31,224 bases of DNA from a virus. Its lineage: Duplodnaviria; Heunggongvirae; Uroviricota; Caudoviricetes; Ackermannviridae. Under the pieces are notes generated by a model. The model had not been told where the DNA came from and made no database searches. It saw nothing but the letters and a program-made list of their open reading frames with translations. This document shows positions 1-14,368 of the stretch, piece by piece. The stretch's first letter is position 1. Each line of letters opens with the position of its first letter. A program made the translations under genes and the position numbers. The stretch is taken from positions 1 through 31,224 of IMG/VR virus record IMGVR_UViG_2974516482_000001. One strand, 5' to 3'.

Positions 1-650
1 CATCAAAGTTGTGTCCAAACGTTACAACTCGCATTCAATGTCTTCGTCACGCCGAATACTTGTCCTCTACGCTCGGACCAAACGAGGCTGGCCGACAGAA
101 ACATAACACCACTCATCACTAGAGCGAGGATGTGGTTGATAGCCACGATGTTACATCTCTGTCGAAGAGTGATCACACTTGTCAGATGATCACTGTTTTG
201 CGAACTCGAGAATACTGCGCCTGTCTCGGGTTTCCCCTTAGTTCGGCCTCTCATTGTTCATCCGGTCAGGGAGCTACCCTTGATGACCAGCTTATATTGA
301 GATCTTCGCCAGCGCCCACCAGTGTCTAGAATGTGTAGGCGTCGAGGTCTGCAAGGCATTGCCCTATTTCATACAACGCTCTCTCAAGTACGCAAATCGA
401 AGTTCTCTGGGCTTAACAGGTTCGACCCAACATGTTGTATATCGCCTAACTTACTCATGGGACGGCCACTTCTGTGTACAGACCTTGAGGGTTAAAAGAT
501 ATACCCAAAGAACTTCGATTTGCGTTGTGGGGGCAAACCCCCACACGGCTACTTCTTTGACAGGGATTGCTAGCCCTGGGGATTCCACTGTTTAAGGCTT
601 TATCCCATAACGCCTGAGGCGCGTTTTAACTTATTGAAGCTTGCATAACT
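1..650 (-). ncRNA. Putative large structured ncRNA of unknown class (continues beyond the window start)
   Basis: No credible ORF. 22-bp stem 390-411/504-525 and 18-bp stem 93-110/147-164; their 5 non-Watson-Crick positions are G.U only on the minus strand. Further helices at 168-175/187-194, 264-288, 526-545 and 561-578. Pseudoknot-type pairings 371-377/434-440 and 383-388/484-489. Boundaries are approximate. Confidence 0.6.
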
Positions 651-656
651 GCAAAC

Positions 657-1020
657 TGATGCGCTGTGAGACACATCTGGGAGGGCACTCTGTGGATTCA
701 TTTTACAGCATCCCGTATAGCGGATACCGACCTCGATCAAGTGCCCTCTCAGATGTCGGCGGGAGCTTATTAATCACACCCTCCCGCCTATTTTTAGTGC
801 GCCGAATTTTGTTATGAGGAATCGGAAGACCTCACTGACTTATAGGCTATTACGCCGCCATCAGAACTTCGGAATCATTAGCAGTTATTTGCTTGGTCAG
901 TTTCTAAAAACCCGCAAAGTCGCATCCAACGAGAACGAAAACCTGTTTGAGTCCTAAACCTACCTGTCTTGGTCTCACATCGCTATGAGTGGCCAGGACT
1001 CAAACAGCTTGCCGTTCAGT
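657..1020 (-). ncRNA. tmRNA-like RNA (mRNA-like domain with tag frame; tRNA-like domain non-canonical)
   Basis: Minus strand 882->850 reads GCT AAT GAT TCC GAA GTT CTG ATG GCG GCG TAA (then TAG) = ANDSEVLMAA**. It is preceded by AAAUAACU and has no start codon or SD. Helix over the stop (GGC-GUAAUA-GCC), pseudoknot-like element at ~802-834, promoter at 1027-1052, length ~364 nt. Confidence 0.65.
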
Positions 1021-1026
1021 GAGTTA

Positions 1027-1052
1027 ACTATACTTTGTAACCCGTTATTGAT
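1027..1052 (-). promoter_or_regulatory. Putative early-type promoter ATCAAT-N14-TATAGT driving the tmRNA-like RNA (TSS ~1020)
   Basis: Same spacing as the TTCAAT-N14-TATAAT motif at 2403-2428; AT-rich upstream tract. Confidence 0.6.
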
Positions 1053-1070
1053 AAAACCTTTTATTTTTGT

Positions 1071-1137
1071 TGACGAGGGTGTGGAATCGAACCACACTTC
1101 TGAGCGCTACCCCGTGTCACCAATGCACCACCTCGCC
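1071..1137 (-). ncRNA. tRNA-like element with truncated anticodon arm (not a decoding tRNA)
   Basis: Minus strand GGCGAGG-TG-GTGCATTGGTGACAC-G-GGGTAGCGCTC-AGAA-GTGTGG-TTCGATT-CCACAC-CCTCGTC-A: 7-bp acceptor stem, D-loop GG, canonical TTCGATT T-loop, 11-nt anticodon arm instead of 17, no encoded CCA. Confidence 0.75.
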
Positions 1138-1539
1138 ATCGATTTGCCGGAACTTACGCATCCGGCCTCGTCCTGTCGGTGTTCTTCTGAATCCGGGAAG
1201 ATCAGCAGGAACTATGAATCAAGTTAATTCAACCAACAGGAATCCTCGTGTTGCCCTTTGACGCAACATTATGAACCCTCTATGAAGACTCATAATGTTG
1301 TCGGCGTGATGGAGATTAGCGCCCCCGACCTCCCCTTATATGTTGGTGTCGACTTGCCAACGGGGTGCTCTCTGATTCTGAGATAATCACGCTACAACAG
1401 GGAGTTTCGTTCTCCGACGGTCAAGTGCGTCCACTGACACCAGCGAGGTGGATATTGACTTATGGAGCCGGAGTCCTCGTCCTAGGACTGTGCTTGGCCT
1501 CAGCCTTTACACCGCTGGTCGCCCGACTCTTTACACCAT
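1138..1539 (-). ncRNA. ~400-nt structured RNA with RNase P RNA-like layout (degenerate core)
   Basis: GAGGACUCCGGCUCCAUAAG (1459-1478) resembles GAGGAAAGUCCGGGCUCCAUAGG. CACCGACAGGAC..GCCGG (1161-1181) resembles CACGACAGAACCCGG. P4-like UCCGGC/GCCGGA, P3-like hairpin 1501-1517, CAGAGAGCACCCCG (1361-1374), 11-bp stem 1264-1274/1290-1300. Comparison is from memory of E. coli M1 RNA. Confidence 0.4.
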
Positions 1540-1546
1540 AAAATTT

Positions 1547-1575
1547 ACTATACTACAGCCCAGCTAATTTGAAAA
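1547..1575 (-). promoter_or_regulatory. Putative promoter TTTTCA-N17-TATAGT (TSS ~1539)
   Basis: Sigma70-like spacing; same TATAGT -10 hexamer as the 1027-1052 promoter. Confidence 0.55.
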
Positions 1576-1592
1576 GTCCTCTCCCCTTTGAG

Positions 1593-1739
1593 CTACACTG
1601 CCCACAGCAGTGCGGACGAACCTTCACTCAAAACCGGATGCGCCGAAGTGGGCAACTGTTTACCGGACTGATCGGGTAGACCCAGGAGAGAGCAGGTAAT
1701 CCCGATCAGGAGGATGAGGAGTAACATCATGTAAAACAT
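1593..1739 (-). CDS. 48-aa small hydrophobic protein (MFYMMLLLILLIGITCSLLGLPDQSGKQLPTSAHPVLSEGSSALLWAV)
   Basis: Below the ORF-track cutoff and translated by hand. Strong SD GGGAGGG 6 nt before ATG; N-terminal ~20-aa hydrophobic helix; TAG at 1593-1595. Confidence 0.55.
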   Translation of the reverse strand: MFYMMLLLILLIGITCSLLGLPDQSGKQLPTSAHPVLSEGSSALLWAV

Positions 1740-1796
1740 AGTGTTCCCTCCCTTCCATGCAACTAACTTTACTACAATTATTTATTGAATAAAGCG

Positions 1797-2366
1797 TTAT
1801 TTTAACACTTCTAACTTCACAACACGACGCAGAAGGTAAACATATTCGCCAGCAGCTTCATGCGTCATATAATGGGTAGAAGGTGTGGAATGATTGTTCT
1901 GGGTTTCTTTTAACCCAACGCGTTCAGCCCAACCATTAATAGAGTTCCCATAGAAACCGATAATCGCGCCGAAATAAATGCGCTGGCTCTCTGGTTCTAA
2001 AATATAGTTGACAGTGAAACAGATGTCAGAACGAATAGACTCCAGTTTCATACCAACACGACCTTCGGAGAATTCGTTACGAACATATAAATGACGGAAA
2101 CGATCGCGCCGCGCTTGTGATGATTCTTCCAATTCTTGTCGGAGTGAAGAAGTTACGTCAATATTAAATGAAAATGTTGGATTTTGTAAATCGGAACGGG
2201 CCAACTCTAACGCAGATTCAACAACGCGACGGAAATTGATACTTTTACCTGTCAGGCGTTTCACTTCATCTGTGATTGTTCCAAAAGGGATTTTCGTGGC
2301 GCGTTCCCCTTCGTATTTTGCCAATAAAGGAATAATGTGTTTCATGATTGCTGTGTTAATGTGCAT
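1797..2366 (-). CDS. Hypothetical protein, 189 aa
   Basis: Long ORF with SD GAGG and its own upstream promoter; no family recognised. Confidence 0.85.
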   Translation of the reverse strand: MHINTAIMKHIIPLLAKYEGERATKIPFGTITDEVKRLTGKSINFRRVVESALELARSDLQNPTFSFNIDVTSSLRQELEESSQARRDRFRHLYVRNEFSEGRVGMKLESIRSDICFTVNYILEPESQRIYFGAIIGFYGNSINGWAERVGLKETQNNHSTPSTHYMTHEAAGEYVYLLRRVVKLEVLK

Positions 2367-2428: not shown

Positions 2429-2682
2429 TATAAACGCAGGAATGGCCAATAAAATAATGACAGTGATTATTAATAGGTAAAAACTACTTTTCTACAACAT
2501 CAAGAAACTGTATCTTAACGCGGTGCCCTTCGAGTTGTGAGTGTTAACGAACAACGAGAAGCAGCCTCCATGGCTGCGGAATGGGACTGCCTGTCAAGGC
2601 GGTGTTACGAGCGAGGGCGTCAGCCCCCTCGCGAGTATATTCGAATAAATTAAACGCGCGCGAGCGTTTTGATTCCCGTTGG

Positions 2683-2689
2683 CTAAATA
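2683..2689 (+). promoter_or_regulatory. Late promoter CTAAATA (gp6)
   Basis: The motif recurs upstream of seven structural genes; variant of the T4 TATAAATA late promoter. Confidence 0.7.
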
Positions 2690-2729
2690 TCTTCAACACC
2701 ATATTCAAACTCAGGTGATGGAGATTATC

Positions 2730-4511
2730 ATGGCCACGCAAACAGTTCCTTCACTCGACGTCAGAGCATTTGAATACATTATTAAACAGCGAATGAAAGC
2801 TGATCCCACCTTTAAAGATTATGACTTTGAAGGTTCTGGTCTTAGTGCGATTATTCGTTTGTTGGCATCTGACGCGAACGCCATAGCCTTTATGCAAAAC
2901 ATGCTTAATGGTGAAGGCCATTTGAAGACAGCAAATCAACGTTCAAACGTCGGTTTATCTGCTGCATTTCTTTCCTACACGCCTGACAACTATCGGGCAG
3001 CATACATGTATGTCAACATCAAAGTTACGCCTTATGACGCCAGCACAGCCCCCAATGAGATCATCATGGATCGGCGCGTAATGTTCGTTGGGGCAAAAGA
3101 CGGCAGTTCCTACAACTTTACTGTTGAGAAACCAGTGTCGGCAACGTTGACTGCAGACGGTTATTACATGTTCAACAATGTAAAGTTGGTACAGGGGAAT
3201 TGGTTGTACAAGACATATGATGTTGAAGGAAGCGCGATTTCAACATATACGATTCCTTCTGGGAATGTCGATATCAATCATATGGTCGTGCAAGTACAAG
3301 AATCAGAGTCTTCCGACGTTTCGACGACATATCAACGTTACAACAGTCCATTTGATCTGAGCCAATATGCCTACCTGTATTTCGTAGAATTGGGTATTGA
3401 TGGTCTGTATGTGTTTGAATTCGGAGATGGTTATCTTTCGCGTCGAGTAGAAGATGGGAACGTCATATTCCTTCAATACTTAGAAACTTCTGGTGCTGAT
3501 GGGAATGATATCACAAGCCTGTCATCAGCGTCATCCATAGGCGGGTTTAACCAGGTCGATGTAGAATTGGTTTCCGAACGTAGCGCAGGTGGAGACGATC
3601 CGGAATCTATTGAGGACACTAAACGGCTGGCTCCTTTAGCTTATCAGGCTGATGGTGCTGCGGTTACAGAAACAGATTATGGTGTATTGACTGAAAGGTT
3701 ATTCTCCAACGTCTCCCGAGCTAAATCATATGGTGGTGACACGCTGTCTCCTCCTGATTCTGGCTATGTTTACATCGCTGTTATACCTTCTGTTGGTGAG
3801 ACACTTTCGGACGCTGAGAAGGCCGATATCGTTGCTGCTCTGGACAAGTATAATGTGGGATCTATCACCCCCAAAGTGGTAGATTCCGAGATCACATATA
3901 TCCAAGTCTCAACGACTATATTTTGGGATCCTACTTCTACAGTCTACGTTGAAGAACAGATGAAAGTTGTTGTTGGAAACAGTATCGTTAAATGGGGTGA
4001 AAATAATCTCGGCGGATTTGACCAATTGTTTGACAAAGAAATATTGCAGGAAGCAATTACAAAAATGGAGCGTTCTATTAACTCGAATATTACTTCGGTT
4101 GGTTATAAACGCCATTTCAAACCCGATTATGGAGTCTTAGACAGTTTTACATTCAGTTATGGAAGAAGTATCAAACCTGGTTCTGTGAAAATAACGGGGT
4201 TCAAACCGCTTCCTGCCGAGGTGGATTTCACTTACTACATGCGCGACAATAATGGCGATTTGAACATGTATAAAGTGAATAACAATGACACGACAAAAGA
4301 GTTTTTAGTTCAAAAAACAGGGGTTGTAGATTATGCAAATGGGGTTGTAGACCTTCAGCAGATCACGGTCTCTAACTATAACCCTGAAGGGGTGACCATA
4401 GTCGTGTTACCGGATGGACTGAACCAGAACATACAGGCTACACAAAACCAAGTATTCAAGATTGGTGATGTGGTTGTTAAGCCAGAGGTGCGCTATGTCC
4501 AAAGATCTTAA
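2730..4511 (+). CDS. gp6: Baseplate wedge subunit, T4 gp6-like (593 aa)
   Basis: DYDFEGSGLS and GGDDPESIED..LAP..YQ motifs of gp6/Baseplate_J. Start moved to ATG 2730 (SD GGAG, downstream of the late promoter). Confidence 0.92.
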   Translation: MATQTVPSLDVRAFEYIIKQRMKADPTFKDYDFEGSGLSAIIRLLASDANAIAFMQNMLNGEGHLKTANQRSNVGLSAAFLSYTPDNYRAAYMYVNIKVTPYDASTAPNEIIMDRRVMFVGAKDGSSYNFTVEKPVSATLTADGYYMFNNVKLVQGNWLYKTYDVEGSAISTYTIPSGNVDINHMVVQVQESESSDVSTTYQRYNSPFDLSQYAYLYFVELGIDGLYVFEFGDGYLSRRVEDGNVIFLQYLETSGADGNDITSLSSASSIGGFNQVDVELVSERSAGGDDPESIEDTKRLAPLAYQADGAAVTETDYGVLTERLFSNVSRAKSYGGDTLSPPDSGYVYIAVIPSVGETLSDAEKADIVAALDKYNVGSITPKVVDSEITYIQVSTTIFWDPTSTVYVEEQMKVVVGNSIVKWGENNLGGFDQLFDKEILQEAITKMERSINSNITSVGYKRHFKPDYGVLDSFTFSYGRSIKPGSVKITGFKPLPAEVDFTYYMRDNNGDLNMYKVNNNDTTKEFLVQKTGVVDYANGVVDLQQITVSNYNPEGVTIVVLPDGLNQNIQATQNQVFKIGDVVVKPEVRYVQRS

Positions 4512-5349
4512 TAATGGACACAACGGGGTTAAGTATGAAACTCCGTTGTTCTACCAGAATGATTTCCCTCTGTTCATAGAATTTATGGACACGTTCTTCA
4601 ATTGGCTGTATAGACAGCAGGGGTTCACTCAAGAAGAGATCTTGGCATATCTGGCAGATACGTCTAGTTGGATGAATCCCGAGAGTGAAGATTCTCCAGT
4701 TAAACAGCTGATTGATTTAAAGGCTGACAAGACCCCAGGCTCAGAGGCCAAGGATTATTTGTCTGATAAATTCTTGGTTCGTACCTTTGAGAACATGATG
4801 GCTCTGGACGCCGAAGAACTTTTAGATGCTGACGGAAGGCCGCTACTGTCAATAGAAGATAAGAACAAACAGATAGATGACTGGTATAATGATTTTGGTT
4901 TCCAACGAACTGTTGATAAATCATTTCAGGAATTTGGTCATTTTATCCCAGTTGGTTCGGATTCTTTATTGACGGCCACGGGCGATACGTTCTCTGTTTA
5001 TATCGAAGGAACTAAACGAAGAACTCTGGATCATCCGCGTTGGTTGAAACTGTTAAAACATATCTATAAAATCCGCGGAACCAAGAAAGCAATTGAATTG
5101 TTCTTTTGGATGTATTTCGGTTGTCCAGTCAGCGTCTATTTTACGAAAGAAGACATAGGCGGTCTGGACGGAAATTTTGAATGTGACGGCACGACAGGGA
5201 TGCGTGATGATTACTATTATGATGAATACACTTATGTTATAGGAGTCCCAGGCGACGTATCTGATTTTGAAGGTGTGTTTGAGCGCGTCTTCCGTCAGCA
5301 TTTCCATCCTGCTGGATTTACTGTATTCCTAGAAAGCACAAGGAGCTAA
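4495..5349 (+). CDS. Baseplate wedge subunit, gp7-like (284 aa)
   Basis: Follows gp6; HIYKIRGTKKAIELFF and HFHPAGF motifs typical of gp7/P2-I-like wedge proteins; SD GAGG before ATG 4495. Confidence 0.7.
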   Translation: MSKDLNNGHNGVKYETPLFYQNDFPLFIEFMDTFFNWLYRQQGFTQEEILAYLADTSSWMNPESEDSPVKQLIDLKADKTPGSEAKDYLSDKFLVRTFENMMALDAEELLDADGRPLLSIEDKNKQIDDWYNDFGFQRTVDKSFQEFGHFIPVGSDSLLTATGDTFSVYIEGTKRRTLDHPRWLKLLKHIYKIRGTKKAIELFFWMYFGCPVSVYFTKEDIGGLDGNFECDGTTGMRDDYYYDEYTYVIGVPGDVSDFEGVFERVFRQHFHPAGFTVFLESTRS

Positions 5350-5351
5350 AA

Positions 5352-6542
5352 ATGGCCGATTTCCTGAGTCAATATACAGGTCAGCAGATAGATCAGATAT
5401 TGGGTTCTGTTGATGACAAAGTAAGTAAAAATGACGTTATTAACGATTTTGAAGTTAACGACCCATTGTTTCCGCCATCTGCTCGCCTGACATACGAGTT
5501 GAAAAGATCTGTTGACACAATCAATGATACTTTGGCCAACAAAGTTATTCGGACAGATAGTGGTGAACAAACAATCAATGGCAAAAAGACTTTCAATGCG
5601 TTGTTGGTGACCAATGGGGGCATACAAGTTCCCGCCGGAAAATCCGTTTCAATCACAGATGAACCAACGAACTCGACAGATGGTGTTAACCTGAGTATGT
5701 TGAGAAAGCATGGCGTCAGTGAAGACACTACCCCGCCTGGTTCTGGTTTGGCTGGGGAGTTGTTGACATCCGGATATTACAAATTCAATTTGGATTTCAC
5801 CAGATTGTCTGCGTATACCGGACCAACGTTGCCGACTTCAGTTCCAGTACAAACAGATTCTGGAGCGCATTATTGGACAATGACTGCATTTTTTGATGCG
5901 TTGTTTGCAGATAACCGATTTAATGGGTATGTGACAACGACAGCGTATGACGCAGATATGCTGAGTCTAGAGTCCCAGATTAATAACATCAACACGTCGT
6001 TGAACGGGAAAGTCAACACATCGACTTACAACACTAAGATGGCGTCGTTGGATTTGAGTATCTCCAATATCAATACGTCTCTGGGTAATAAAGTCGAGGT
6101 CAGCACATATAATACGAAGATGACTTCCTTGGACGGCAGTATCAGTTCTCTCACGACTGGTAAGGTCGATGTATCAACGTATAATGCCAAAATGACCACA
6201 ATTGATAACAGTTTAGGGAACGCAGTTTATCGCACAAAAACAAACTTGTCGTCATATACGGTTTCGGCTTCTGGAACGACGGCTCTTCCAGATTTTGATT
6301 TGGTGAACCTTTGTCAAATACTGGTAACTGCGCAATGGGGGACGGGTAACGTTGTTGACACATATCGAGTAACCATAACTCGTGACGGAACGATCAAAAC
6401 AGAGTTGTTGGTTCAGAAAAGTACGAGCGGTACAGTGACGTTCACAGGGGCTGTGGTGGGTGGTAAATTGAGAATTTCCGTTGTTAATGCAAATACGACA
6501 ACTGCTTGTTCTGTCGACTATTCTATTGCAGCTTCTTTCTAA
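5352..6542 (+). CDS. Putative fibre/baseplate-associated structural protein (396 aa)
   Basis: QTINGKKTF fibre motif, neck-like PTNSTDGVNLSML, three K-V-x-x-STYNxKM coiled-coil repeats. Confidence 0.7.
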   Translation: MADFLSQYTGQQIDQILGSVDDKVSKNDVINDFEVNDPLFPPSARLTYELKRSVDTINDTLANKVIRTDSGEQTINGKKTFNALLVTNGGIQVPAGKSVSITDEPTNSTDGVNLSMLRKHGVSEDTTPPGSGLAGELLTSGYYKFNLDFTRLSAYTGPTLPTSVPVQTDSGAHYWTMTAFFDALFADNRFNGYVTTTAYDADMLSLESQINNINTSLNGKVNTSTYNTKMASLDLSISNINTSLGNKVEVSTYNTKMTSLDGSISSLTTGKVDVSTYNAKMTTIDNSLGNAVYRTKTNLSSYTVSASGTTALPDFDLVNLCQILVTAQWGTGNVVDTYRVTITRDGTIKTELLVQKSTSGTVTFTGAVVGGKLRISVVNANTTTACSVDYSIAASF

Positions 6543-6544
6543 AA

Positions 6545-6555
6545 CTAAATACCCC
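6545..6555 (+). promoter_or_regulatory. Late promoter CTAAATACCCC overlapping an RBS-occluding hairpin (6548-6584)
   Basis: Motif plus 14-bp inverted repeat 6548-6561/6571-6584. Confidence 0.75.
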
Positions 6556-6588
6556 TAGATGACATGAATACATTTAGGGGTATTACAA

Positions 6589-9500
6589 ATGGCCAACAAA
6601 CCAACACAGCCTCTTTTCCCTTTGGGTTTAGAAACTTCTGAGTCTTCGAACATAAAAGGCTTCAACAACTCCGGCACTATTGAGCATTCCCCTGGTGCCG
6701 TAATGACATTTCCTGAAGATACTGAAGTTACAGGTCTTCCATCTTCTGTGCGTTACAATCCTGATAGTGATGAATTTGAAGGTTATTACGAAAACGGTGG
6801 TTGGTTGTCTTTGGGGGGTGGTGGAATACGCTGGGAAACGCTCCCTTACGCTCCCTCTAGCAATTTGTTAGAAGGTCGTGGCTATCTCATTAATAATACA
6901 ACAGGGACATCTACAGTGGTTCTCCCTTCCCCTACGCGTATTGGGGATTCCGTTACTATTTGTGATGCTTATGGGAAATTTGCCACTTACCCATTGACCG
7001 TGTCTCCTTCTGGAAATAATTTGTATGGCTCCACTGAAGACATGGCTATAACAACTGATAACGTATCAGCAACGTTCACTTGGTCTGGACCTGAACAAGG
7101 TTGGGTTATCACATCCGGCGTCGGTCTTGGCCAAGGCCGTGTCTACAGTCGTGAAATCTTTACACAAATTTTGGCGTCTGAAACAAGTGCTGTCACTCTC
7201 AATACTCCACCAACAATCGTGGACGTGTATGCTGACGGAAAACGTCTTGCGGAATCCAAATATTCACTAGATGGGAATGTAATCACTTTCAGTCCTTCTT
7301 TGCCAGCCAGCACAGAACTTCAGGTGATTGAATATACTCCTATTCAATTGGGTAATGGCGGTGGTTCTAGTTCTTCTACGATTACTTGGGTCTATAATGG
7401 GGGTTCAGCGATTGGTGGTGAAACCGAAATCACGTTAGACGTCGTTGTTGATGATGTTCCGGCTATTGATATAAACGGAAGTCGCCAGTATAAAAATCTG
7501 GGGTTCACATTCGATCCATTAACCAGTAAAATCACTCTTGCGCAAGAACTGGATGCAGAGGATGAAGTTGTTGTAATTATCAATGGAACGCCAAACATCT
7601 ATAATCAAATTGATTATACTTTGCGGGAAGTGGCTCGTGTAACCAATGTTAAAGATACAGAGGTCGTTTATTTTAGTGTTGGTGCTGTGTTAAGCGGGTA
7701 TAAAGTTATCTATGATAAAGTAACACAGAGATCATATTTTATTCCAGAGTTACCGACTGGAACCACGGCAGTCAGCCTTAGTTCTTCGGCTGTGCTTGTA
7801 CATTCTGCTGGTAGTGTTGATCTGGGCGCATTAGCTGTATCTCGTGAAGAATATGTTACCTTGGCTGGGACATTTGATTCTGGTGCTGTCATCAATACTA
7901 AAAATGAATTACTCACCCATACTGATGGAAAGTATCGTTGGGATGGTACACTTCCTAAAACTGTAGCTGCTGGCTCAACTCCAGCAACAACTGGAGGCGT
8001 TGGTTCGGGAGCGTGGTTGAGTGTTGGTGACGCAGCATTTAGACAGGAAGCCAACAAAAAATTCAAATATTCAGTAAAGTTATCTGATTATTCTACATTA
8101 CAGGATGCAGCGACAGCAGCCGTAGATGGATTGCTTATTGATGTTGACTACACTTTTACTGCAGATGAGAGTGTAGATTTTAGCGGTAAAGTTTTAATCA
8201 TTGAATGCAAAGGAAAATTCATTGGCGATGGTATGTTGGTTTGGAATGGTTTGGGTGCGGGTTCAGTAATTAAGAAACCGCACATGCATACTAAAACTAC
8301 GCCGTATACTGTTTACCGATTCGATGCAAACGGTAATTGGGTTACAGACCCAACACAAGTTCTGGCATCTGTTCAGCAGCGTTTGGATGTTGGATATAAG
8401 CCAAATATTAACGATTTAGATATTTGGGACGACCTTCCTGATAATGTAAAAAATCAGGTTGCTGGTGCTACTTTGCGAATAATGAGCGGCGATAATATCA
8501 TCGTAGAGAACCCAGAAGCTACATTTGGTGGTTATCTATTTACTTTATGTAATAGGATTCTTGTTAAGAATCCACGCAATTTTATTGCTTTGGAATCGGG
8601 TATTACATTTGAGAACCATCATACAACTGCATGGGGTACTGGCAACTGGGTTGTTGGGGGTGAGATTAAATATGGCTCTGGTTCCGCTGTACTGTTCATT
8701 CGCAATGATGGTGGTACAGACCATGATGGTGGAGTAAGAGATTTAATCTCATACCGTGTTGGAGAATCAGGTATTAAAACCTATCAGAACGAAATTGGAG
8801 GTCGTTCAGCCAGGAACTACCGTTTAGTGTTCGACAATATAACTACAATCCAGTGTTACTATGATGGTATTGATGTTAATGCTGACACAGGGTCGCCAAC
8901 TGAACGTGTGGATGACTACTCACTCGCAGAGTATCCATGGTTCCACCTACCTACCCAACATATCATCCGTAATATTATTACTCGTGATTGTATGGGGATT
9001 GGTGCTTGGTGGGATGGTCAGAAAAATATTATTGATAATGTTGTTACTTATGAGGCCCATAAGGAAGGCGTCTTCGATAGGGGTACTAACAATGATATTA
9101 CTAACATTACTGTAGTAGGTGCGAATAAGGATTTAACTAACTTAAATCAGCTTACCTGTGAGGGAGGTAGTAGACTTCGTGGTATTAACATCCATGCATA
9201 TACTACACAAGGTTACGCTATATACGCTCCGTCTTCAGAAGTAAGTAATGTTTCCTGTGCTGGTTCCGGTACTAAGAAATTACTATGTACCTATATAAGC
9301 GATATTCAGGGAGGTAATATCAATGTTCAGCATAGTGCCAACCAAATGACACTTGCAATGCAACCTGCTATGGGTGGTACTACAAACCCATCTTTGCTTA
9401 TGACGGCAGATTGCCAGGTTGCTACACCAGGGGGTGAGGCAAGTATTGTCAAGCTTTCGGCAATTCAGGAGGGTGTACGTGTAGGTGAGTTTCAGCTTAA

Positions 9501-9663
9501 CCGCTTAGGCTTTAAGCATATGAGTATACCTGCTGCCCCTTTACAATTACCAGAGAGCGCTCTGGAACATAATTCATCTATAGGATTCTTCTTCGGAAGT
9601 GACGGAGCATTGAGGTTGCTTGCTAAAAAACCAGATGGAAGTTATGTAACATACACACTTTAA
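6589..9663 (+). CDS. Tailspike TSP4-type (anchor + XD1-3 + TD1-2) with a P22-tailspike-family receptor-binding domain
   Basis: The N-terminus MANKPTQPLFPLG... matches CBA120 TSP4 as recalled. From ~aa 487, KKFKYSVKLSDY.TLQDAA.AAVDGLLID matches the P22 gp9/Det7 endorhamnosidase beta-helix. Confidence 0.92.
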   Translation: MANKPTQPLFPLGLETSESSNIKGFNNSGTIEHSPGAVMTFPEDTEVTGLPSSVRYNPDSDEFEGYYENGGWLSLGGGGIRWETLPYAPSSNLLEGRGYLINNTTGTSTVVLPSPTRIGDSVTICDAYGKFATYPLTVSPSGNNLYGSTEDMAITTDNVSATFTWSGPEQGWVITSGVGLGQGRVYSREIFTQILASETSAVTLNTPPTIVDVYADGKRLAESKYSLDGNVITFSPSLPASTELQVIEYTPIQLGNGGGSSSSTITWVYNGGSAIGGETEITLDVVVDDVPAIDINGSRQYKNLGFTFDPLTSKITLAQELDAEDEVVVIINGTPNIYNQIDYTLREVARVTNVKDTEVVYFSVGAVLSGYKVIYDKVTQRSYFIPELPTGTTAVSLSSSAVLVHSAGSVDLGALAVSREEYVTLAGTFDSGAVINTKNELLTHTDGKYRWDGTLPKTVAAGSTPATTGGVGSGAWLSVGDAAFRQEANKKFKYSVKLSDYSTLQDAATAAVDGLLIDVDYTFTADESVDFSGKVLIIECKGKFIGDGMLVWNGLGAGSVIKKPHMHTKTTPYTVYRFDANGNWVTDPTQVLASVQQRLDVGYKPNINDLDIWDDLPDNVKNQVAGATLRIMSGDNIIVENPEATFGGYLFTLCNRILVKNPRNFIALESGITFENHHTTAWGTGNWVVGGEIKYGSGSAVLFIRNDGGTDHDGGVRDLISYRVGESGIKTYQNEIGGRSARNYRLVFDNITTIQCYYDGIDVNADTGSPTERVDDYSLAEYPWFHLPTQHIIRNIITRDCMGIGAWWDGQKNIIDNVVTYEAHKEGVFDRGTNNDITNITVVGANKDLTNLNQLTCEGGSRLRGINIHAYTTQGYAIYAPSSEVSNVSCAGSGTKKLLCTYISDIQGGNINVQHSANQMTLAMQPAMGGTTNPSLLMTADCQVATPGGEASIVKLSAIQEGVRVGEFQLNRLGFKHMSIPAAPLQLPESALEHNSSIGFFFGSDGALRLLAKKPDGSYVTYTL

Positions 9664-9676
9664 TTTATCTTGAGCA

Positions 9677-9702
9677 AAAACCCCGCTTTGGCGGGGTTCT
9701 TA
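9677..9702 (+). terminator. Rho-independent terminator CCCCGC-TTTG-GCGGGG
   Basis: GC stem with a preceding A tract and a short T tract. Confidence 0.75.
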
Positions 9703-9736
9703 TTATACCTTTGTTCATAAATTTTATTAGTTCAGA

Positions 9737-9747
9737 CTAAATACCCC
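9737..9747 (+). promoter_or_regulatory. Late promoter CTAAATACCCC overlapping an RBS-occluding hairpin (9740-9774)
   Basis: Motif plus perfect 11-bp inverted repeat 9740-9750/9764-9774. Confidence 0.75.
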
Positions 9748-9779
9748 ATATTGGCAAATCCTTTATGGGGTATTTTCAA

Positions 9780-12008
9780 ATGACCAGAAATGTAGAAGAA
9801 TTATTCGGCGGCGTAATCACAGCTCCCCACCAGATTCCTTTCACGTATAAATCAAATGTCGGTGGAGAAACTTTTCTTTCCTTGCCGTTCTATCCCGTCA
9901 CTGGTGTTATCACAATCAACGGTGGTATGCAAGTTCCGTTAGACAACTTTGAAATCGAAGGAAATACGTTGAATCTCGGACGCGCATTGTCCAAAGGCGA
10001 TGTTGTGTATTGCTTATTCGATAAAATTCTTTCACCAGAAGATACAGCCAAAGGTATCCGCATATACAAATTTCAGGCCGTAGGAGGGGAAACCGAGTTT
10101 ACTCCTGATTTCACATCTTATGGAGTCCAATCTCTTTATATTGGTGGCGAGTACAAAACACCCGAAATTGAATATTCCTATAACAGCACGACAGGGAAAG
10201 TGTCTTTGCAAACTGCACTGACTGCAGGCGTTTGGGTAGTCGCTGAAATGTCTGTTAAACAACCGAATATCAGTCCGGCGTTTGACCGAAGTATTCAAGA
10301 AATCGCCCGTTCTGCTAATGTGAAAGACTCTGAAGTCATCGTTAGTACGGACACCATATCTTTGTTGGATGGGAAGAAAGTTGTTTATGACATAGCGACG
10401 CAAACCAGTTATGGTTTACCAACCATTCCTGATGGTTCTGTCATTTCTACGATCTCAGACGGGAAATTGAATTACAACCCAGGTGATGTGCAGGTTGATC
10501 TCTTACCATTACCAGATTCTTCTCAGGCGGTTAAATTATTCTATTTACAACCAAGCGGCGCAGAAAATATTAAAGTTTCCAGTGGAGACACAGTACAAGA
10601 TATTCTGAATAATATCAATAAACACCGTGTCGTTGGTAGTATGGCAGAACTTTTGAATGTGTCTCCAACTGAAACGACCTTCGTGTTTGTGACTTCTTTC
10701 CACCCATCAACCAATTATGGTGGTGGTTTCTTCCGTTGGGATCCTTCTGGGAACAAGGCTGCTCACAACGGCGGCACGATCATCGATCCTGGTAAAACGT
10801 TCCCGACTTGGGACAGCGCAGGGAAGACTTCTTGGTTTACCGCAAGCGGGACAGGTACTGGAGTTTGGCGTCGTCAAGACGTGATGGGTCATTACCGCGC
10901 TGAAGACTTTGGTGCGCTTCCTTGGAACGTCGGGGACGCGCATGACAGTACCAAAGAATTCCAACAAGTGGCCAACGTGGCATATCGGGGCGGTTGCTGG
11001 AGATGGACAGGTCGCCATCGCATTACGAGTTATATTGATATTCCCAATAAACAGACTTTTGGTTCATACGCCCAAATGACTTCTGTTTATTCTGAACTAT
11101 TCCAGCCCAGCAATTTCCAGGGGGTGCACGTTATTTCTGATCCTTCTTTAGCGCGTTCTGTACAAAATGCTGTCTTCTTTGATGCTGCGACTGGAGAAGC
11201 ATTCCGTTGTGGTGAAGGTGCATCACCAACAGATTGTTTGGTGTACGGAAGAGGGTTTACAACTACTGGGATGGATTTGGCGACATCATTACCTTCGGCG
11301 GCTTCGTATTGTGACACCCAAGCATTCCGTCATGGAAAGGCCATTAACGTGCGAAATGTTACTGTGGCGCTTATGAAGTACGCGTTGGATTCTAATCCAT
11401 GGGATGCCAGCAAAGGTGATTATTATTCCACTACGGATCATATGACGATTCTGTATTGTTATTGTATTAGTCGTGTTCCATCTGGACAGGATATAACATT
11501 CAATACCAAGCATATCAATATGCGTGCTTATGTAAACCAGATTGGCGATTATGGATTGGCGGTTCGAAATGTGGTGTTCATCGGCGGTTCGATCGAAGGG
11601 TATAACACTTCAACATACTTACGTTCCAGTACTCAACTTTCTTTCAAAGGGACATATTTTGAAACGGGAGATACAGCATTCAATGGTACTGTATTCAGTC
11701 TTGTTGGTTGGTGTACTTTGAACTTTGAAGAATGTCTCGTTTATTTGAATAATACCACAAACTTCGTGTCTTCGGGTGGTTCAGGACAGTCTGCTGGCGT
11801 CTTAGGTTTAACAATTAAATCTCAAGGTAATGTGTGGCGCAAAACTGACGTGGGAACAACTACGGTGTTTGCAGTTGATCCGGTCACTAATAAGCAAGCC
11901 TTGCTTGGATCCGAAATATTGAATGCTGTGAGTGGGGCAACTATCGCATATTGGGCTGGCGCCGTCCCACCTGGCACATACACAGCTCCAATCAGTGTTG
12001 CATTTTAA
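9780..12008 (+). CDS. Tailspike TSP2-type (742 aa)
   Basis: MTRNVEELFGG... XD2/XD3/TD1 N-terminus as in Kuttervirus TSP2; GGGFFRWD..NGGTII head motif followed by a beta-helix-like region. Confidence 0.9.
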   Translation: MTRNVEELFGGVITAPHQIPFTYKSNVGGETFLSLPFYPVTGVITINGGMQVPLDNFEIEGNTLNLGRALSKGDVVYCLFDKILSPEDTAKGIRIYKFQAVGGETEFTPDFTSYGVQSLYIGGEYKTPEIEYSYNSTTGKVSLQTALTAGVWVVAEMSVKQPNISPAFDRSIQEIARSANVKDSEVIVSTDTISLLDGKKVVYDIATQTSYGLPTIPDGSVISTISDGKLNYNPGDVQVDLLPLPDSSQAVKLFYLQPSGAENIKVSSGDTVQDILNNINKHRVVGSMAELLNVSPTETTFVFVTSFHPSTNYGGGFFRWDPSGNKAAHNGGTIIDPGKTFPTWDSAGKTSWFTASGTGTGVWRRQDVMGHYRAEDFGALPWNVGDAHDSTKEFQQVANVAYRGGCWRWTGRHRITSYIDIPNKQTFGSYAQMTSVYSELFQPSNFQGVHVISDPSLARSVQNAVFFDAATGEAFRCGEGASPTDCLVYGRGFTTTGMDLATSLPSAASYCDTQAFRHGKAINVRNVTVALMKYALDSNPWDASKGDYYSTTDHMTILYCYCISRVPSGQDITFNTKHINMRAYVNQIGDYGLAVRNVVFIGGSIEGYNTSTYLRSSTQLSFKGTYFETGDTAFNGTVFSLVGWCTLNFEECLVYLNNTTNFVSSGGSGQSAGVLGLTIKSQGNVWRKTDVGTTTVFAVDPVTNKQALLGSEILNAVSGATIAYWAGAVPPGTYTAPISVAF

Positions 12009-12012
12009 TTTC

Positions 12013-12033
12013 CCCCTCCTTCGGGAGGGTTTA
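12013..12033 (+). terminator. Weak terminator-like hairpin CCCTCC-TTCG-GGAGGG-TTT
   Basis: UUCG hairpin with a short U tract between TSP2 and the next tailspike. Confidence 0.5.
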
Positions 12034-12055
12034 TTAGAAAAACAGGAGATTCATC

Positions 12056-14368
12056 ATGAATCCGCAATTTGCTCAACCAAAAGGTTCTACTTCAAAAGAA
12101 TCGAACAAAGATAGTATTGCCCGTAAATTTGGGTGTAAAAAGTCGGAAGTCGTTTATGCCAAAGCGGGACAGTCATTGTCTGGTTATAAAGTGATCTACG
12201 ATAAGTTGTCTCAACGTGCCTACGCTCTCCCTTCTAACATTGGTGCTGTAACGGTCACCAGTTTGGTCGACGGCATCCTCACACACTCTGGAGGCACTGT
12301 AGATTTGGGTGCGCTGGCCGTATTGCGTGAGGAATACGTCATTCTGATAGAAAATTTCACTTCTGGATTTACGATTCGTGTCAAGAACGAAGTCGTGAGC
12401 GATGGGGTGAGTCTATATCGTTGGAATGGTGCATTACCTAAAGTTGTTCCTGTTGGTTCAACTCCTGCATCAACTGGTGGCGTTGGCTTAGGTGCTTGGC
12501 GGTCAATTGGAGTTTCTTTGCCTAACGGCACTGTCAACGACGCCATTAAATATGTCACTCCTGAAATGTTCCGACTGGATACGGATACCAATGATGACCA
12601 AATGTTTCAGCGCATGTGGGATTTTGCAATTCCTGCCAACGCCAACATAATTGGTGATGGTGAGTATCACTTAGCCAATACCTATGAAGTTCCGGAAGTG
12701 CATACACCTCCTGTGCGTTATGACTTCAATGTGATGACCATCAAATTGCGCAAGGTGGTATACACAGCAGCAACAGGAGTTGCATTTGTCAACAGGTCTC
12801 CTGGATGTGTGTTTGAAATTGGTGAGCTAGCTGGCAAGATATTTGAGATCGCAGAAGAGGCTGGCACACTGGATTCTGTAGTTATCGATGAAACAATTGG
12901 ATTTCAGTTAATGGGGCAAGGAAGAATCCCTAACGTTATTCACGTAGTACATGGATTTGCAACCAATGTGAAACTGGATACTTGTTTCACCAGAGCCATC
13001 TATGTGGGCGAATGTTATGATTCATTGCGTGGCGTAAGATGCGTAGTGGCTAACGCTAACCGTATCTTCGGTAAGATTGGTGGTGGCTTTAGTAATGCCG
13101 AGATTGACCCGTCTACCTGCGAAGTTGGTATTACTTTTGATACCAGTTCTAACACTAATGAAGTGTATGCCAATATTGAGTATTGTCGTCGTACAGTAAA
13201 CTCACGTCCATTTGTAGATGATGGTTCTACTAACGTATTCTTCGGTTATATCGAGTCCTGTAACTCACCTGGCCTGGTGAATGGCCCTTATGCCCGTTAC
13301 CAGATTAAGAACGGGGGTAATAATACTCGCTCACAGTTTGGATATGAAGTTGGTGGTATGCAGTCTCAGATTGAGATGTTGGATGATGTAGTTGATAACG
13401 GTGTTCCTGTTACTGTAGGTAACTCCACCATTACCTATAAGAACTTGCAATCTGCTCTGTCTAAGTCGAATCAGGCTGAAGTAATTGGTAAAGGTAGTCG
13501 TGAGATTATTGCTCAGGGGAAGGTGAATCAGTATATCGTAAGTTCCAATGACTTACTGGCACCACAATGGAACTTGGCTGTTGGTGGAGCTGCGCAGACT
13601 AGTGACCTGTCTATTACTTCCGGTTTGCTGAATGGCGGTGCTTCTACACAGTATCGTTATGGGTCTCGTATTGTTGCTAATCGAGAAGCCACCGAATCTG
13701 ATTATTACGTGATTAGTCAAAACGTTACTGCAGCCTTCCTGCGTGAAGTGTCTTTCGGGATTGCATTGCGTATGGTTGAGGAAGTCGGTTATCCTGGAGA
13801 TGCAGAATTTTTGCTGAAGATTCAGGCTATTACTGGTAATATCCTTTACAGTAAAGCGTTCCGTTTAACTGGTGGTAGTAAGATTGTTGAGCATTTCCAC
13901 AGTGTTCCTACTCAATTTGTTGACAGTGATACTTATAGTGTTCAGCTCCATATTCGTACATGGAAGATGTCAAAAATTGATATCTTTAATATTCATCTAT
14001 GTAATGGGGCTAACATTGAACGTGCTCCTGCTAGTGTTGGTACTGGACCCACCCCATTCCAACCAATAGACAAGAATGCCATAGGGTTCCTGCCTAAGCG
14101 GATATGTAAACCAATTTCTGCGCCGTTAACTTTGAAACAATATGAATTTGACACATATATTGTTGAGGGTACTGGTAATATTACCTTACACGCTGGGTAT
14201 GATGGGCAGACTGTTACCTTCATCCGTAATGGTGCCACTGATTTCAATTTATTATCTACAGAAACAATCGATGGTGCAGGTTTGACTCCAATGACTGATG
14301 GTATGAAAATTACAATTCAGTTCATTGAGCAATTAGGAAGGTGGGTTACTTTATCAAAGGTATCATAA
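12056..14368 (+). CDS. Tailspike at the TSP1 position (770 aa)
   Basis: Short helical N-terminus plus TD1/TD2 (GYKVIYDK..., YRW.G.LPK.V..GSTP..TGGVG.GAW), YVTPEMF neck, beta-helix, and a C-terminal domain that may be carbohydrate-binding. Confidence 0.9.
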   Translation: MNPQFAQPKGSTSKESNKDSIARKFGCKKSEVVYAKAGQSLSGYKVIYDKLSQRAYALPSNIGAVTVTSLVDGILTHSGGTVDLGALAVLREEYVILIENFTSGFTIRVKNEVVSDGVSLYRWNGALPKVVPVGSTPASTGGVGLGAWRSIGVSLPNGTVNDAIKYVTPEMFRLDTDTNDDQMFQRMWDFAIPANANIIGDGEYHLANTYEVPEVHTPPVRYDFNVMTIKLRKVVYTAATGVAFVNRSPGCVFEIGELAGKIFEIAEEAGTLDSVVIDETIGFQLMGQGRIPNVIHVVHGFATNVKLDTCFTRAIYVGECYDSLRGVRCVVANANRIFGKIGGGFSNAEIDPSTCEVGITFDTSSNTNEVYANIEYCRRTVNSRPFVDDGSTNVFFGYIESCNSPGLVNGPYARYQIKNGGNNTRSQFGYEVGGMQSQIEMLDDVVDNGVPVTVGNSTITYKNLQSALSKSNQAEVIGKGSREIIAQGKVNQYIVSSNDLLAPQWNLAVGGAAQTSDLSITSGLLNGGASTQYRYGSRIVANREATESDYYVISQNVTAAFLREVSFGIALRMVEEVGYPGDAEFLLKIQAITGNILYSKAFRLTGGSKIVEHFHSVPTQFVDSDTYSVQLHIRTWKMSKIDIFNIHLCNGANIERAPASVGTGPTPFQPIDKNAIGFLPKRICKPISAPLTLKQYEFDTYIVEGTGNITLHAGYDGQTVTFIRNGATDFNLLSTETIDGAGLTPMTDGMKITIQFIEQLGRWVTLSKVS

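Follow-up and report, generated by a model that had tools for sequence, protein, structure and literature searches.

A 67-nt non-decoding, tRNA-like RNA gene at a modular site beside the tRNA genes of ViI-type phages

The locus and its neighbours

The window analysed here, a stretch of DNA of 31,224 nucleotides considered over its whole length, corresponds to bases 1-31224 of a linear virus record of 159,128 bp. Open reading frames at 2679-14368 encode baseplate wedge proteins of the gp6/gp7 type and tailspikes (TSP1/Gp66 N-terminal domain, P22-type head), and the first 1.8 kb has matches in 259 phage records, almost all from Ackermannviridae of Salmonella, E. coli, Shigella and Klebsiella. 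The source phage is of the Salmonella/E. coli ViI type. On the minus strand of this first part, a gene for a 189-aa protein is followed by one for a 48-aa membrane peptide, a promoter-like site, a structured RNA of about 400 nt, the small tRNA-like element that is the subject of this work, a second promoter-like site, and a tmRNA-like tag RNA. The features of the element and its immediate surroundings are as follows, in coordinates of the window.

1547..1575, minus strand: promoter-like site TTTTCA-17-TATAGT (consensus scan only), which would drive a transcript ending in the element
1138..1540, minus strand: upstream structured RNA region, which holds a second tRNA-like unit at about 1392..1303
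1063..1141, no strand assigned: 79-nt presence/absence unit, comprising the element with 5 nt on its upstream and 7 nt on its downstream side, with a 4-nt microhomology at its bounds
1071..1137, minus strand: 67-nt anticodon-less tRNA-like RNA gene ("type A" shell), defined by its fold, ARAGORN -ps80, covariance model R1 and nine covarying variants
1131..1137, minus strand: 5′ strand of the acceptor stem, GGCGAGG, pairing with 1072-1078
1114..1128, minus strand: D arm with a stem of 3-4 bp and a 7-nt loop, A14 and GG invariant, changed in phage K751
1102..1112, minus strand: 11-nt stub (3 bp and a 5-nt loop) in the place of the anticodon arm, with a variable loop and a middle pair that is G.U or G-C
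1079..1097, minus strand: T arm with a 6-bp stem and the loop UUCGAUU, stem changed in phage K751, loop invariant
1071..1078, minus strand: 3′ strand of the acceptor stem and discriminator A, followed by ACAAAAA
1027..1054, minus strand: promoter-like site TTATCA-16-TATAGT of the tmRNA-like tag RNA (consensus match), starting 17 nt past the element

The two promoter-like sites, which like all promoters mentioned here are consensus matches only, have the hexamer TATAGT in common, and the one at 1054-1027 is conserved in relatives with and without the element. The consensus scan of the minus strand between 1547 and 1137 yielded no promoter-like or terminator-like site. The tRNA-like unit within the upstream RNA carries a hairpin extension of about 20 nt in its anticodon loop, and its copy in phage SenM2 scores 26.6 bits against the tRNA model RF00005. 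The upstream RNA is conserved across loci, with its tRNA-like unit recognisable as far as Serratia phage 2050H1. Four true tRNA genes (Met, Asn, Ile, Ser) lie on the strand of the element just downstream across the ends of the record, at 157928-158905, an adjacency which assumes that the linear record of 159,128 bases is read as circular. Two further canonical T arms, uncalled by ARAGORN, are found after these four tRNAs.

The tag RNA is real. It aligns weakly to permuted tmRNA with cmscan over positions 1000..850 (minus strand), and features a tag frame reading ANDSEVLMAA followed by two stops; the same tag is retrieved by ARAGORN at low threshold. The low-threshold "permuted tmRNA" that ARAGORN draws over 759-1233 takes its tRNA domain from other segments and was rejected, the program making many calls of this kind at that threshold. 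The tag RNA or its promoter is found without the element in phages bering, May and Menlow and in Dickeya phage XF4, and a homologue of the tag RNA occurs by itself in siphovirus Sa179lw (83.6% identity over 128 matching nt).

Two protein-coding candidates at the locus were considered. The 189-aa protein (1797-2366, minus strand) matches no Pfam family, and its sole match is PHROG 3788, of unknown function; with an unusable single-sequence AlphaFold model (pLDDT 35), it was set aside as a candidate RNA partner, and its gene is found in relatives with and without the element. The plus-strand open reading frame 985-1227, annotated in some relatives, was rejected as a gene, its frame being broken by the natural 79-nt indel.

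Anatomy and conservation of the 67-mer

The element reads from 1137 to 1071, with position i of the 67-mer (raw numbering) corresponding to window position 1138-i. Its acceptor stem (raw 1-7/60-66) has 7 bp, including in this copy a wobble pair G2.U65 in raw numbering, equivalent to G2.U71, and its 5′ strand is followed by U8 and G9. The D stem (raw 10-13/21-24) consists of 3 bp and a C.A mismatch, and closes the 7-nt loop AUUGGUG. A single spacer G of the G26 type separates the D arm from the stub, which has 11 nt against the 17 nt of the anticodon arm normally found in this place and is followed by AGAA. Acceptor and T stems together provide a stack of 13 bp (7+6). A73 is present; the bases that follow it are ACAAAAA, so that CCA is not encoded, unlike in all four true tRNAs (Ser, Ile, Asn, Met) of the same genome. 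The folding energy is ordinary, with a z score of -0.94. The original prediction, made from the letters of this stretch, is thus borne out for the acceptor stem, the D-loop GG and the TTCGATT T-loop, all of which are seen on the minus strand at 1137..1071, as well as for the 11-nt anticodon arm, the 13-bp acceptor/T stack and the missing CCA. The G2.U71 wobble that it also listed exists in this copy, but is not a conserved feature, as it occurs in only 3 of 9 variants.

Standard tools pass over this RNA. With default settings ARAGORN calls no tRNA or tmRNA in the window, and nothing in Rfam matches the 67-mer at gathering score. At lax settings the best match within the tRNA clan is tRNA-Sec, with 15.6 bits against a cut-off of 47 and over the acceptor and T arms only; the beta_tmRNA and tRNA-Sec models match the T arm, and tmRNA models reach 9.7 bits on the T arm only. 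The proposal to run ARAGORN at relaxed cut-offs had a mixed outcome. With -ps80 the program calls a tRNA at exactly 1071-1137, with a 2-nt "anticodon", yet it makes 14 calls in 5 kb at that threshold, many of them spurious, and the call by itself proves little. The covariance model built here for the element (R1) scores the 67-mer at 98.5 bits.

As in ordinary phage tRNA genes (RF00005), a 7-bp acceptor stem, U8, A14, G18G19, the loop UUCGAUU and a position in a tRNA island are all present, and U8, A14, G18G19 and a T-loop of the UUCRANY type occur together with acceptor, D and T arms in all nine variants. The differences from such genes are the 11-nt arm, a U33 equivalent that is not conserved, the 13-bp acceptor/T stack and the unencoded CCA. 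Instead of a 5-bp anticodon stem, a 7-nt loop, U33 and a usable anticodon, the element offers a 3-bp stem and a 5-nt loop. A decoding tRNA was therefore rejected: the stub is too small for an anticodon loop, the position of U33 drifts, CCA is unencoded, and scores fall below the thresholds of Rfam and default ARAGORN. Since the 67-mer has no anticodon loop, the "tRNA-Ala" features annotated in phages EP75, vB_Sen_ST2 and SeKF_64 appear to be annotation artefacts.

A search with 91 nt around the element gives 164 matching phage records, 160 of them over the full length. Among the 60 matches listed, lengths are 90-92 nt, except for four shorter or partial ones and two of 98-99 nt; the latter, from phages Mansal and FEC14, contain an 8-nt tandem duplication of the 5′ acceptor strand and no longer anticodon arm. 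The short arm was seen in every copy examined, from the genera Kuttervirus, Agtrevirus and Taipeivirus. Homologues with a normal 17-nt arm, which would have made of this copy a decayed pseudogene or an assembly deletion as the original prediction had allowed, were not found among these copies. Nine distinct variants of the 67-mer align without gaps. In this alignment 94.4% of the cloverleaf cells are paired, compared to 36-59% after a shift of the 3′ partners by one to three columns, and U8, A14, the D-loop GG and the whole T loop are invariant. Acceptor pairs 2-71, 3-70 and 6-67 vary yet remain paired in 8 of the 9 variants; pair 3-70, for instance, is C-G in four variants, U.G in four and U.U in one. 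The letters of the stub loop drift (UAGCG, UGGCG, CAGCG, CAACG), including at the position equivalent to U33, and the sixth pair of the T stem, G41-C59, never varies, so that covariation neither supports nor contradicts it. The U directly 5′ of G1137 is kept in all aligned copies, even where neighbouring bases have changed.

The most informative copy is that of Klebsiella phage K751 (Taipeivirus), which is 82% identical to the 67-mer and, judging from flanks that are themselves 87-89% identical, has diverged in place. Nine of its 12 differences fall in stems, and all 20 of 20 pairs are kept. Three pairs in raw numbering, 6-61, 11-23 and 43-57, are changed on both sides, all of them in this copy. 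In its D stem U11-A23 has become C-G and the mismatch C13.A21 has been replaced by C-G, and in its T stem G43-C57 has become A-U and U42-A58 has become U.G. When 12 substitutions were placed at random with the observed transition bias, the probability of at least three compensated pairs was 0.004, and that of all 20 pairs remaining intact 0.01, for a covariation signal that comes essentially from this one diverged lineage. The copy of FEC14 has two stem mismatches. The compensated changes in K751, together with the invariant U8, A14, GG and T loop, indicate that the fold is under selection and that the short arm is old. In particular, the K751 copy with its 20 of 20 pairs and three double compensations shows the 67-mer to be no assembly error, and no pseudogene of recent decay.

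A search of IMG/VR for diverged copies returned near-identical Kuttervirus copies only, and pattern scans of metagenomes and GTDB genomes returned only chance matches, in GC-rich soil contigs and Planctomycetota MAGs, covering the T arm or a few columns. The origin of the shell was also looked for among bacterial sequences. No match was obtained by blastn against all complete E. coli genomes. In E. coli K-12, R1 ranks the initiator tRNA genes first, at 23 bits, and alignments of the two halves of the sequence rank E. coli tRNA-Leu(CAG) first, within a small and biased panel enriched for tRNA-Leu. The 67-mer is a real, non-decoding, tRNA-derived RNA gene which keeps the upper half of a tRNA, i.e. 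the acceptor, D and T arms and the D/T elbow.

A site of interchangeable tRNA shells

The element is cleanly absent in phages bering (Kuttervirus), May and Menlow (Taipeivirus), where the 79-nt unit 1063-1141 is missing and the flanking RNAs persist, and the identical 79-nt skip (1063-1141) is seen as a joint in a metagenome run (X16). In one IMG/VR genome (L018) an internal deletion has left only the outer halves of the acceptor stem. Phage SenM2 is a recombinant in which the 5′ part belongs to type A and the rest to another type of RNA, type B, i.e. an element half replaced. In 39 records, among them those of Vi01, Marshall and Maynard and of many Klebsiella phages, the same site is occupied by this type B, a different RNA of 146 nt. 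An insert of about 85 nt sits within its own set of acceptor stem, D arm and T arm, and one pair of the acceptor stem differs between phages Marshall and pSal-SNUABM-02, with U-A exchanged for C-G. Part of the type B insert recurs in unrelated phages of Pectobacterium, Enterobacter and Escherichia. Phage pSal-SNUABM-02 has types B and A in tandem, 16 nt apart, and Serratia phage 2050H1 has a tRNA-like unit of 92 nt with a 38-nt middle in the same place, directly before the promoter of the tag RNA.

Type B, the tandem of B and A, the 92-nt shell and the unit within the upstream RNA together point to a site that is punctuated by tRNA-like units. The element is an optional member, and the one with the smallest middle, of an array of tRNA-shell RNAs located between structured non-coding RNA genes and true tRNA genes.

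Possible roles of the element

No description of this RNA, or of small-RNA mapping in Ackermannviridae, was found in the literature. The closest described things are RNAs C and D of phage T4 and mascRNA, which are like the element in anatomy and share no homology with it. The reading favoured here, though at slightly less than even odds, is that the 67-mer may be an element of the mascRNA or T4 RNA C kind, excised from a read-through transcript by RNase P and 3′ trimming. Transcription from the promoter-like site at about 1575-1547 would read through into the element and place it in the 3′ part of the transcript. Host RNase P would cut between U1138 and G1137, a step that would also trim the 3′ end of the upstream RNA; the A-rich trailer would be trimmed by host 3′ nucleases, after which the host CCA-adding enzyme may add CCA. 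As a result, the upstream RNA would be parted from the tmRNA-like tag RNA, and a small, stable mini-tRNA would be released.

This processing reading is favoured because the conserved parts of the element (7-bp acceptor stem, T stem-loop and D/T elbow) are those that maturation enzymes read, and because a U precedes G1137 in every copy and the A-rich trailer lacks structure. The putative RNase P site has U at -1 (U1138) and G at +1 (G1137). Bacterial RNase P cleaves many tRNA-like substrates that are not tRNAs, and recognises the region of the T stem-loop and a 3′ RCCA (PMC11143913). The latter counts against the processing reading, since the 3′ RCCA used by RNase P of the E. coli type is present in the four tRNAs of the phage and missing in the 67-mer. 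The only metatranscriptome with this region (X1) provides assembled contigs of 18 kb and 11 kb with flat depth, and is uninformative on transcription, ends and CCA.

The anatomy of the mascRNA type is nevertheless found in silico, with a cloverleaf of reduced arm and no CCA lying directly 3′ of a longer non-coding RNA in one transcription unit. The counterparts at the 3′ ends of MALAT1 and NEAT1, mascRNA and menRNA, are likewise cloverleaves, about 60 nt in length, whose anticodon arm is reduced and whose CCA is not encoded, and lie directly 3′ of a longer structured non-coding RNA, so that cleavage by RNase P would create the 3′ end of the latter. MALAT1 and NEAT1 mature via the tRNA-processing machinery (PMC12941219). 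In contrast to the 67-mer, mascRNA is eukaryotic and nuclear, and the two share no homology, the 67-mer having no Rfam hit. Moreover, the 67-mer is not needed for the 3′ end of the upstream RNA, which relatives keep without the element, and cleavage is putative here. The element being absent in bering, May and Menlow, deleted in L018 and half replaced in SenM2 while the flanking RNAs persist, any role in processing would be dispensable. Of the mascRNA-style processing tag first suggested for this sequence, the anatomy therefore holds (strand, no intervening promoter or terminator, U-1/G+1, intact elbow), and the notion that the upstream RNA requires it does not.

Within phages, the nearest comparison is with the tRNA cluster of T4, where RNA C (species 1 RNA, rnaC, 139 nt) and RNA D (rnaD, 119 nt) are small, non-decoding neighbours of tRNAs, on the same strand and without anticodon. 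The rnaC gene (NC_000866), inside this cluster, has a canonical T arm near its 3′ end closed by terminal pairing, and RNA C is probably likewise released by processing of the tRNA type. There is no homology between rnaC or rnaD and the 67-mer: with filters off, R1 finds in the T4 tRNA region only the T arm of rnaC, at 8.2 bits. RNA C contains large internal hairpins, whereas the 67-mer, known here from sequence, consists of a complete D arm and a minimal stub; in this respect rnaC is closer to the type B shell, of 146 nt, found in relatives.

The main rival of processing, and one inseparable from it in silico, is that the 67-mer may act in trans, as a mimic of the top half of a tRNA which titrates a host factor reading the acceptor/T half, with processing merely the way in which the RNA is made. 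Such a factor might be EF-Tu, a synthetase or the CCA-adding enzyme, among others, or else a defence toxin directed at the acceptor stems or 3′ ends of tRNAs, which it would modify or cut. This is possible rather than probable. The element goes beyond a minihelix, in that its full elbow (D arm and T loop) is conserved and covarying, and both its presence/absence polymorphism within genera and the existence of several shells for one site are typical of accessory counter-defence genes. Since anticodon nucleases and the sensing of uncharged tRNA at the ribosome need an anticodon, which is missing, both are excluded as targets, and a decoy would be limited to factors that read the acceptor/T half. 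Charging has been considered for leucine in particular. The leucyl-tRNA synthetase of E. coli (LeuRS) charges tRNA-Leu variants without anticodon and variable arms if A73 and the D/T-loop pairs are intact (PMC9976931). From this minimal set the 67-mer has A73, GG (G18G19) and UUCGA with the corresponding T-loop pairs, and thus matches it in part; its position 15 is U, however, so that the determinant A15-U48 is absent, as are A20a and an encoded CCA, and charging is not predicted. No CCA-adding enzyme of family PF01743 is found in the phage genome, which also weighs against a mimic.

A wider proposal takes in the other shells as well: phage tRNA-chassis RNAs would form a widespread class, so far undescribed, with a constant upper half and a stub or a variable insert for the anticodon arm, and the 67-mer would be its "empty-chassis" member. 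Matured with CCA, and perhaps chargeable, such a top-half mimic would titrate a factor reading acceptor ends, e.g. a defence toxin, and would thereby constitute an RNA counter-defence gene. We consider this wider proposal speculative and rather doubtful.

That the element is a functionless relic, i.e. a tRNA gene of the island whose anticodon arm was long ago shortened by 6 nt, whose CCA was lost, and which has been drifting until deleted, is unlikely. Its repeated loss, internal deletion, half-replacement and 8-nt 5′ duplication in relatives are what such a history would leave, as are the two stem mismatches in FEC14 and the ordinary folding energy, and the conservation of the structure reaches modest P values (0.004 to 0.01). 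Drift accords poorly, on the other hand, with a K751 copy in which, after 18% divergence, no pair is broken, three are double-compensated and a mismatch has been repaired, with the invariance of nucleotides involved in tertiary interactions, and with retention in three genera, where flanks and element have diverged to the same degree. On the strength of these compensatory changes a relic seems less likely, even though they come from one lineage and the element is often lost.

The suggestion that the 67-mer is the separate tRNA-like domain of a two-piece tmRNA, alanylated and cooperating in trans-translation with the headless tag RNA (ANDSEVLMAA), is very improbable, and already contradicted on its defining features. 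The 67-mer does lie on the strand of the tag frame, about 180 nt upstream of it, and shares with tRNA-like domains of tmRNA (SsrA; RF00023 and two-piece forms) an acceptor and a T arm, A73, a tag RNA as neighbour and the lack of an anticodon and its arm. It differs from them by its regular D stem, by closing on itself without helix 2, both acceptor strands lying inside the 67-mer so that no helix can join the tag RNA, by its unencoded CCA, and by lacking in all nine variants G3.U70, the bacterial alanine determinant (PMC9976931), in place of which C-G, U.G or U.U is found. The duplexes that RNAduplex predicts for the stub with the tag RNA do not surpass those of shuffled controls (p = 0.41), and those with the upstream RNA (p = 0.11) come down to a 6-nt match with the loop of the other tRNA-like unit, which shows no covariation across 30 loci. 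The tmRNA models of Rfam, as noted above, do not extend beyond the T arm, and the tag RNA is not co-inherited with the element, as it occurs without it in many Ackermannviridae and in an unrelated siphovirus.

Phages of the ViI type, among them Vi01, Det7 and CBA120, have been the subject of much study and serve as candidates for biocontrol and therapy. About 2 kb beside their tRNA genes has been left unannotated, or filled with spurious small open reading frames and a false "tRNA-Ala". The annotation is corrected here to a structurally maintained, non-decoding tRNA look-alike, with interchangeable tRNA-shell RNAs at the same site in relatives, and the idea that the 67-mer is the missing tRNA head of its tmRNA-like neighbour is removed. 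The natural 79-nt presence/absence allele makes this locus a compact test case, and one that bears on a question as old as T4 RNAs C and D, namely the role of non-decoding tRNA-like RNAs in the tRNA clusters of phages.

Shells at the site of the element and in the upstream RNA

The place occupied by the 67-nt anticodon-less tRNA-like element in the window holds other RNAs built on a tRNA shell in relatives, and further tRNA-like units lie within the structured "400-nt RNA" upstream and beyond the tRNA-Ser gene.

L016 (Salmonella phage Marshall) 5231-5376: "type B" tRNA-shell RNA, 146 nt, at the same site as the element
L021 (Serratia phage 2050H1) 4580-4671: 92-nt tRNA-like unit directly 5' of the tag-RNA promoter
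Window 1303-1392, (-) strand: second tRNA-like unit, inside the upstream "400-nt RNA"
G000 C1 (full record) 157847-157863 and 157685-157701, (-) strand: two canonical T arms just beyond the tRNA-Ser gene

In the type B shell, an insert of ~85 nt is enclosed by acceptor stem, D arm and T arm. Besides Marshall, 38 records carry this shell, Vi01 among them. Pectobacterium phage Amona and two Enterobacter/Escherichia phages of ~95 kb share part of the insert, which therefore moves between unrelated phages. The 2050H1 unit combines a perfect 7-bp acceptor stem and a canonical D arm with a non-canonical middle of 38 nt; it is followed by ACCC, and is called by ARAGORN as tRNA-Cys(ACA) with mismatched stems.

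Acceptor stem and D arm are both present in the unit within the upstream RNA, and a hairpin of ~20 nt lengthens the loop of its anticodon stem; its T loop departs from the canonical form, and it lacks CCA. Against RF00005, whose cut-off is 29 bits, the copy in phage SenM2 reaches 26.6 bits; in the window copy, a D-stem G is replaced by T. No match to RNase P RNA was found in window 1-2000. The two T arms beyond the tRNA-Ser gene have the loops TTCGAAT and TTCGATT, respectively, and the tRNA-like units that hold them are left uncalled by ARAGORN at default settings; the first, which lacks CCA, is called as tRNA-Ser(gga) at -ps80 only.

Relatives of the tag RNA and a neighbouring shell

L003 (Escherichia siphovirus vB_EcoS Sa179lw, Buchananvirus) 2501-2628: homologue of the tmRNA-like tag RNA
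L007 (Salmonella phage vB_SenM-2, SenM2) 2240-2370: further tRNA shell, 3' of the tag RNA's pseudoknot region

In Sa179lw, an unrelated siphovirus of 47 kb, the homologue (83.6% identity over 128 nt) is found in the gap 5' of the major tail protein gene. It has a promoter-like site of its own (TTGACA/TAGATT), and two stops follow its tag, ANDDVVLMAA. In the SenM2 shell, a 6-bp terminal helix encloses both an insert of ~85 nt and a T arm of tmRNA type that matches RF00023 positions 349-361 at 10.5 bits. GGCUCCA follows the shell; the window sequence differs at the matching place.

Coding sequences around and within the RNA island

Window 1593-1739, (-) strand: 48-aa hydrophobic peptide, PHROG 8415
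Window 1797-2366, (-) strand: 189-aa protein, PHROG 3788, no Pfam family
Window 985-1227, (+) strand: 80-codon ORF, antisense to the element
L007 1522-2043, L008 1479-1955 and L025 6448-6861 (relatives): HNH homing-endonuclease genes

In the Ackermannviridae loci examined, the peptide and the 189-aa protein are encoded 5' of the island and on its strand. Within Kuttervirus, the 189-aa protein forms two allelic classes of ~65% identity. Some relatives have the antisense ORF annotated as a "hypothetical protein". It is unlikely to be a gene, since its reading frame is disrupted by the 79-nt indel that occurs in nature; the same doubt attaches to several more of the small CDS that annotations of relatives place in the island. 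The HNH genes vary among relatives in their insertion points in the island, and in SenM2 and SNUABM-02 one separates the tag-RNA promoter from the tag. Such insertions may drive mosaic exchange of RNA modules.
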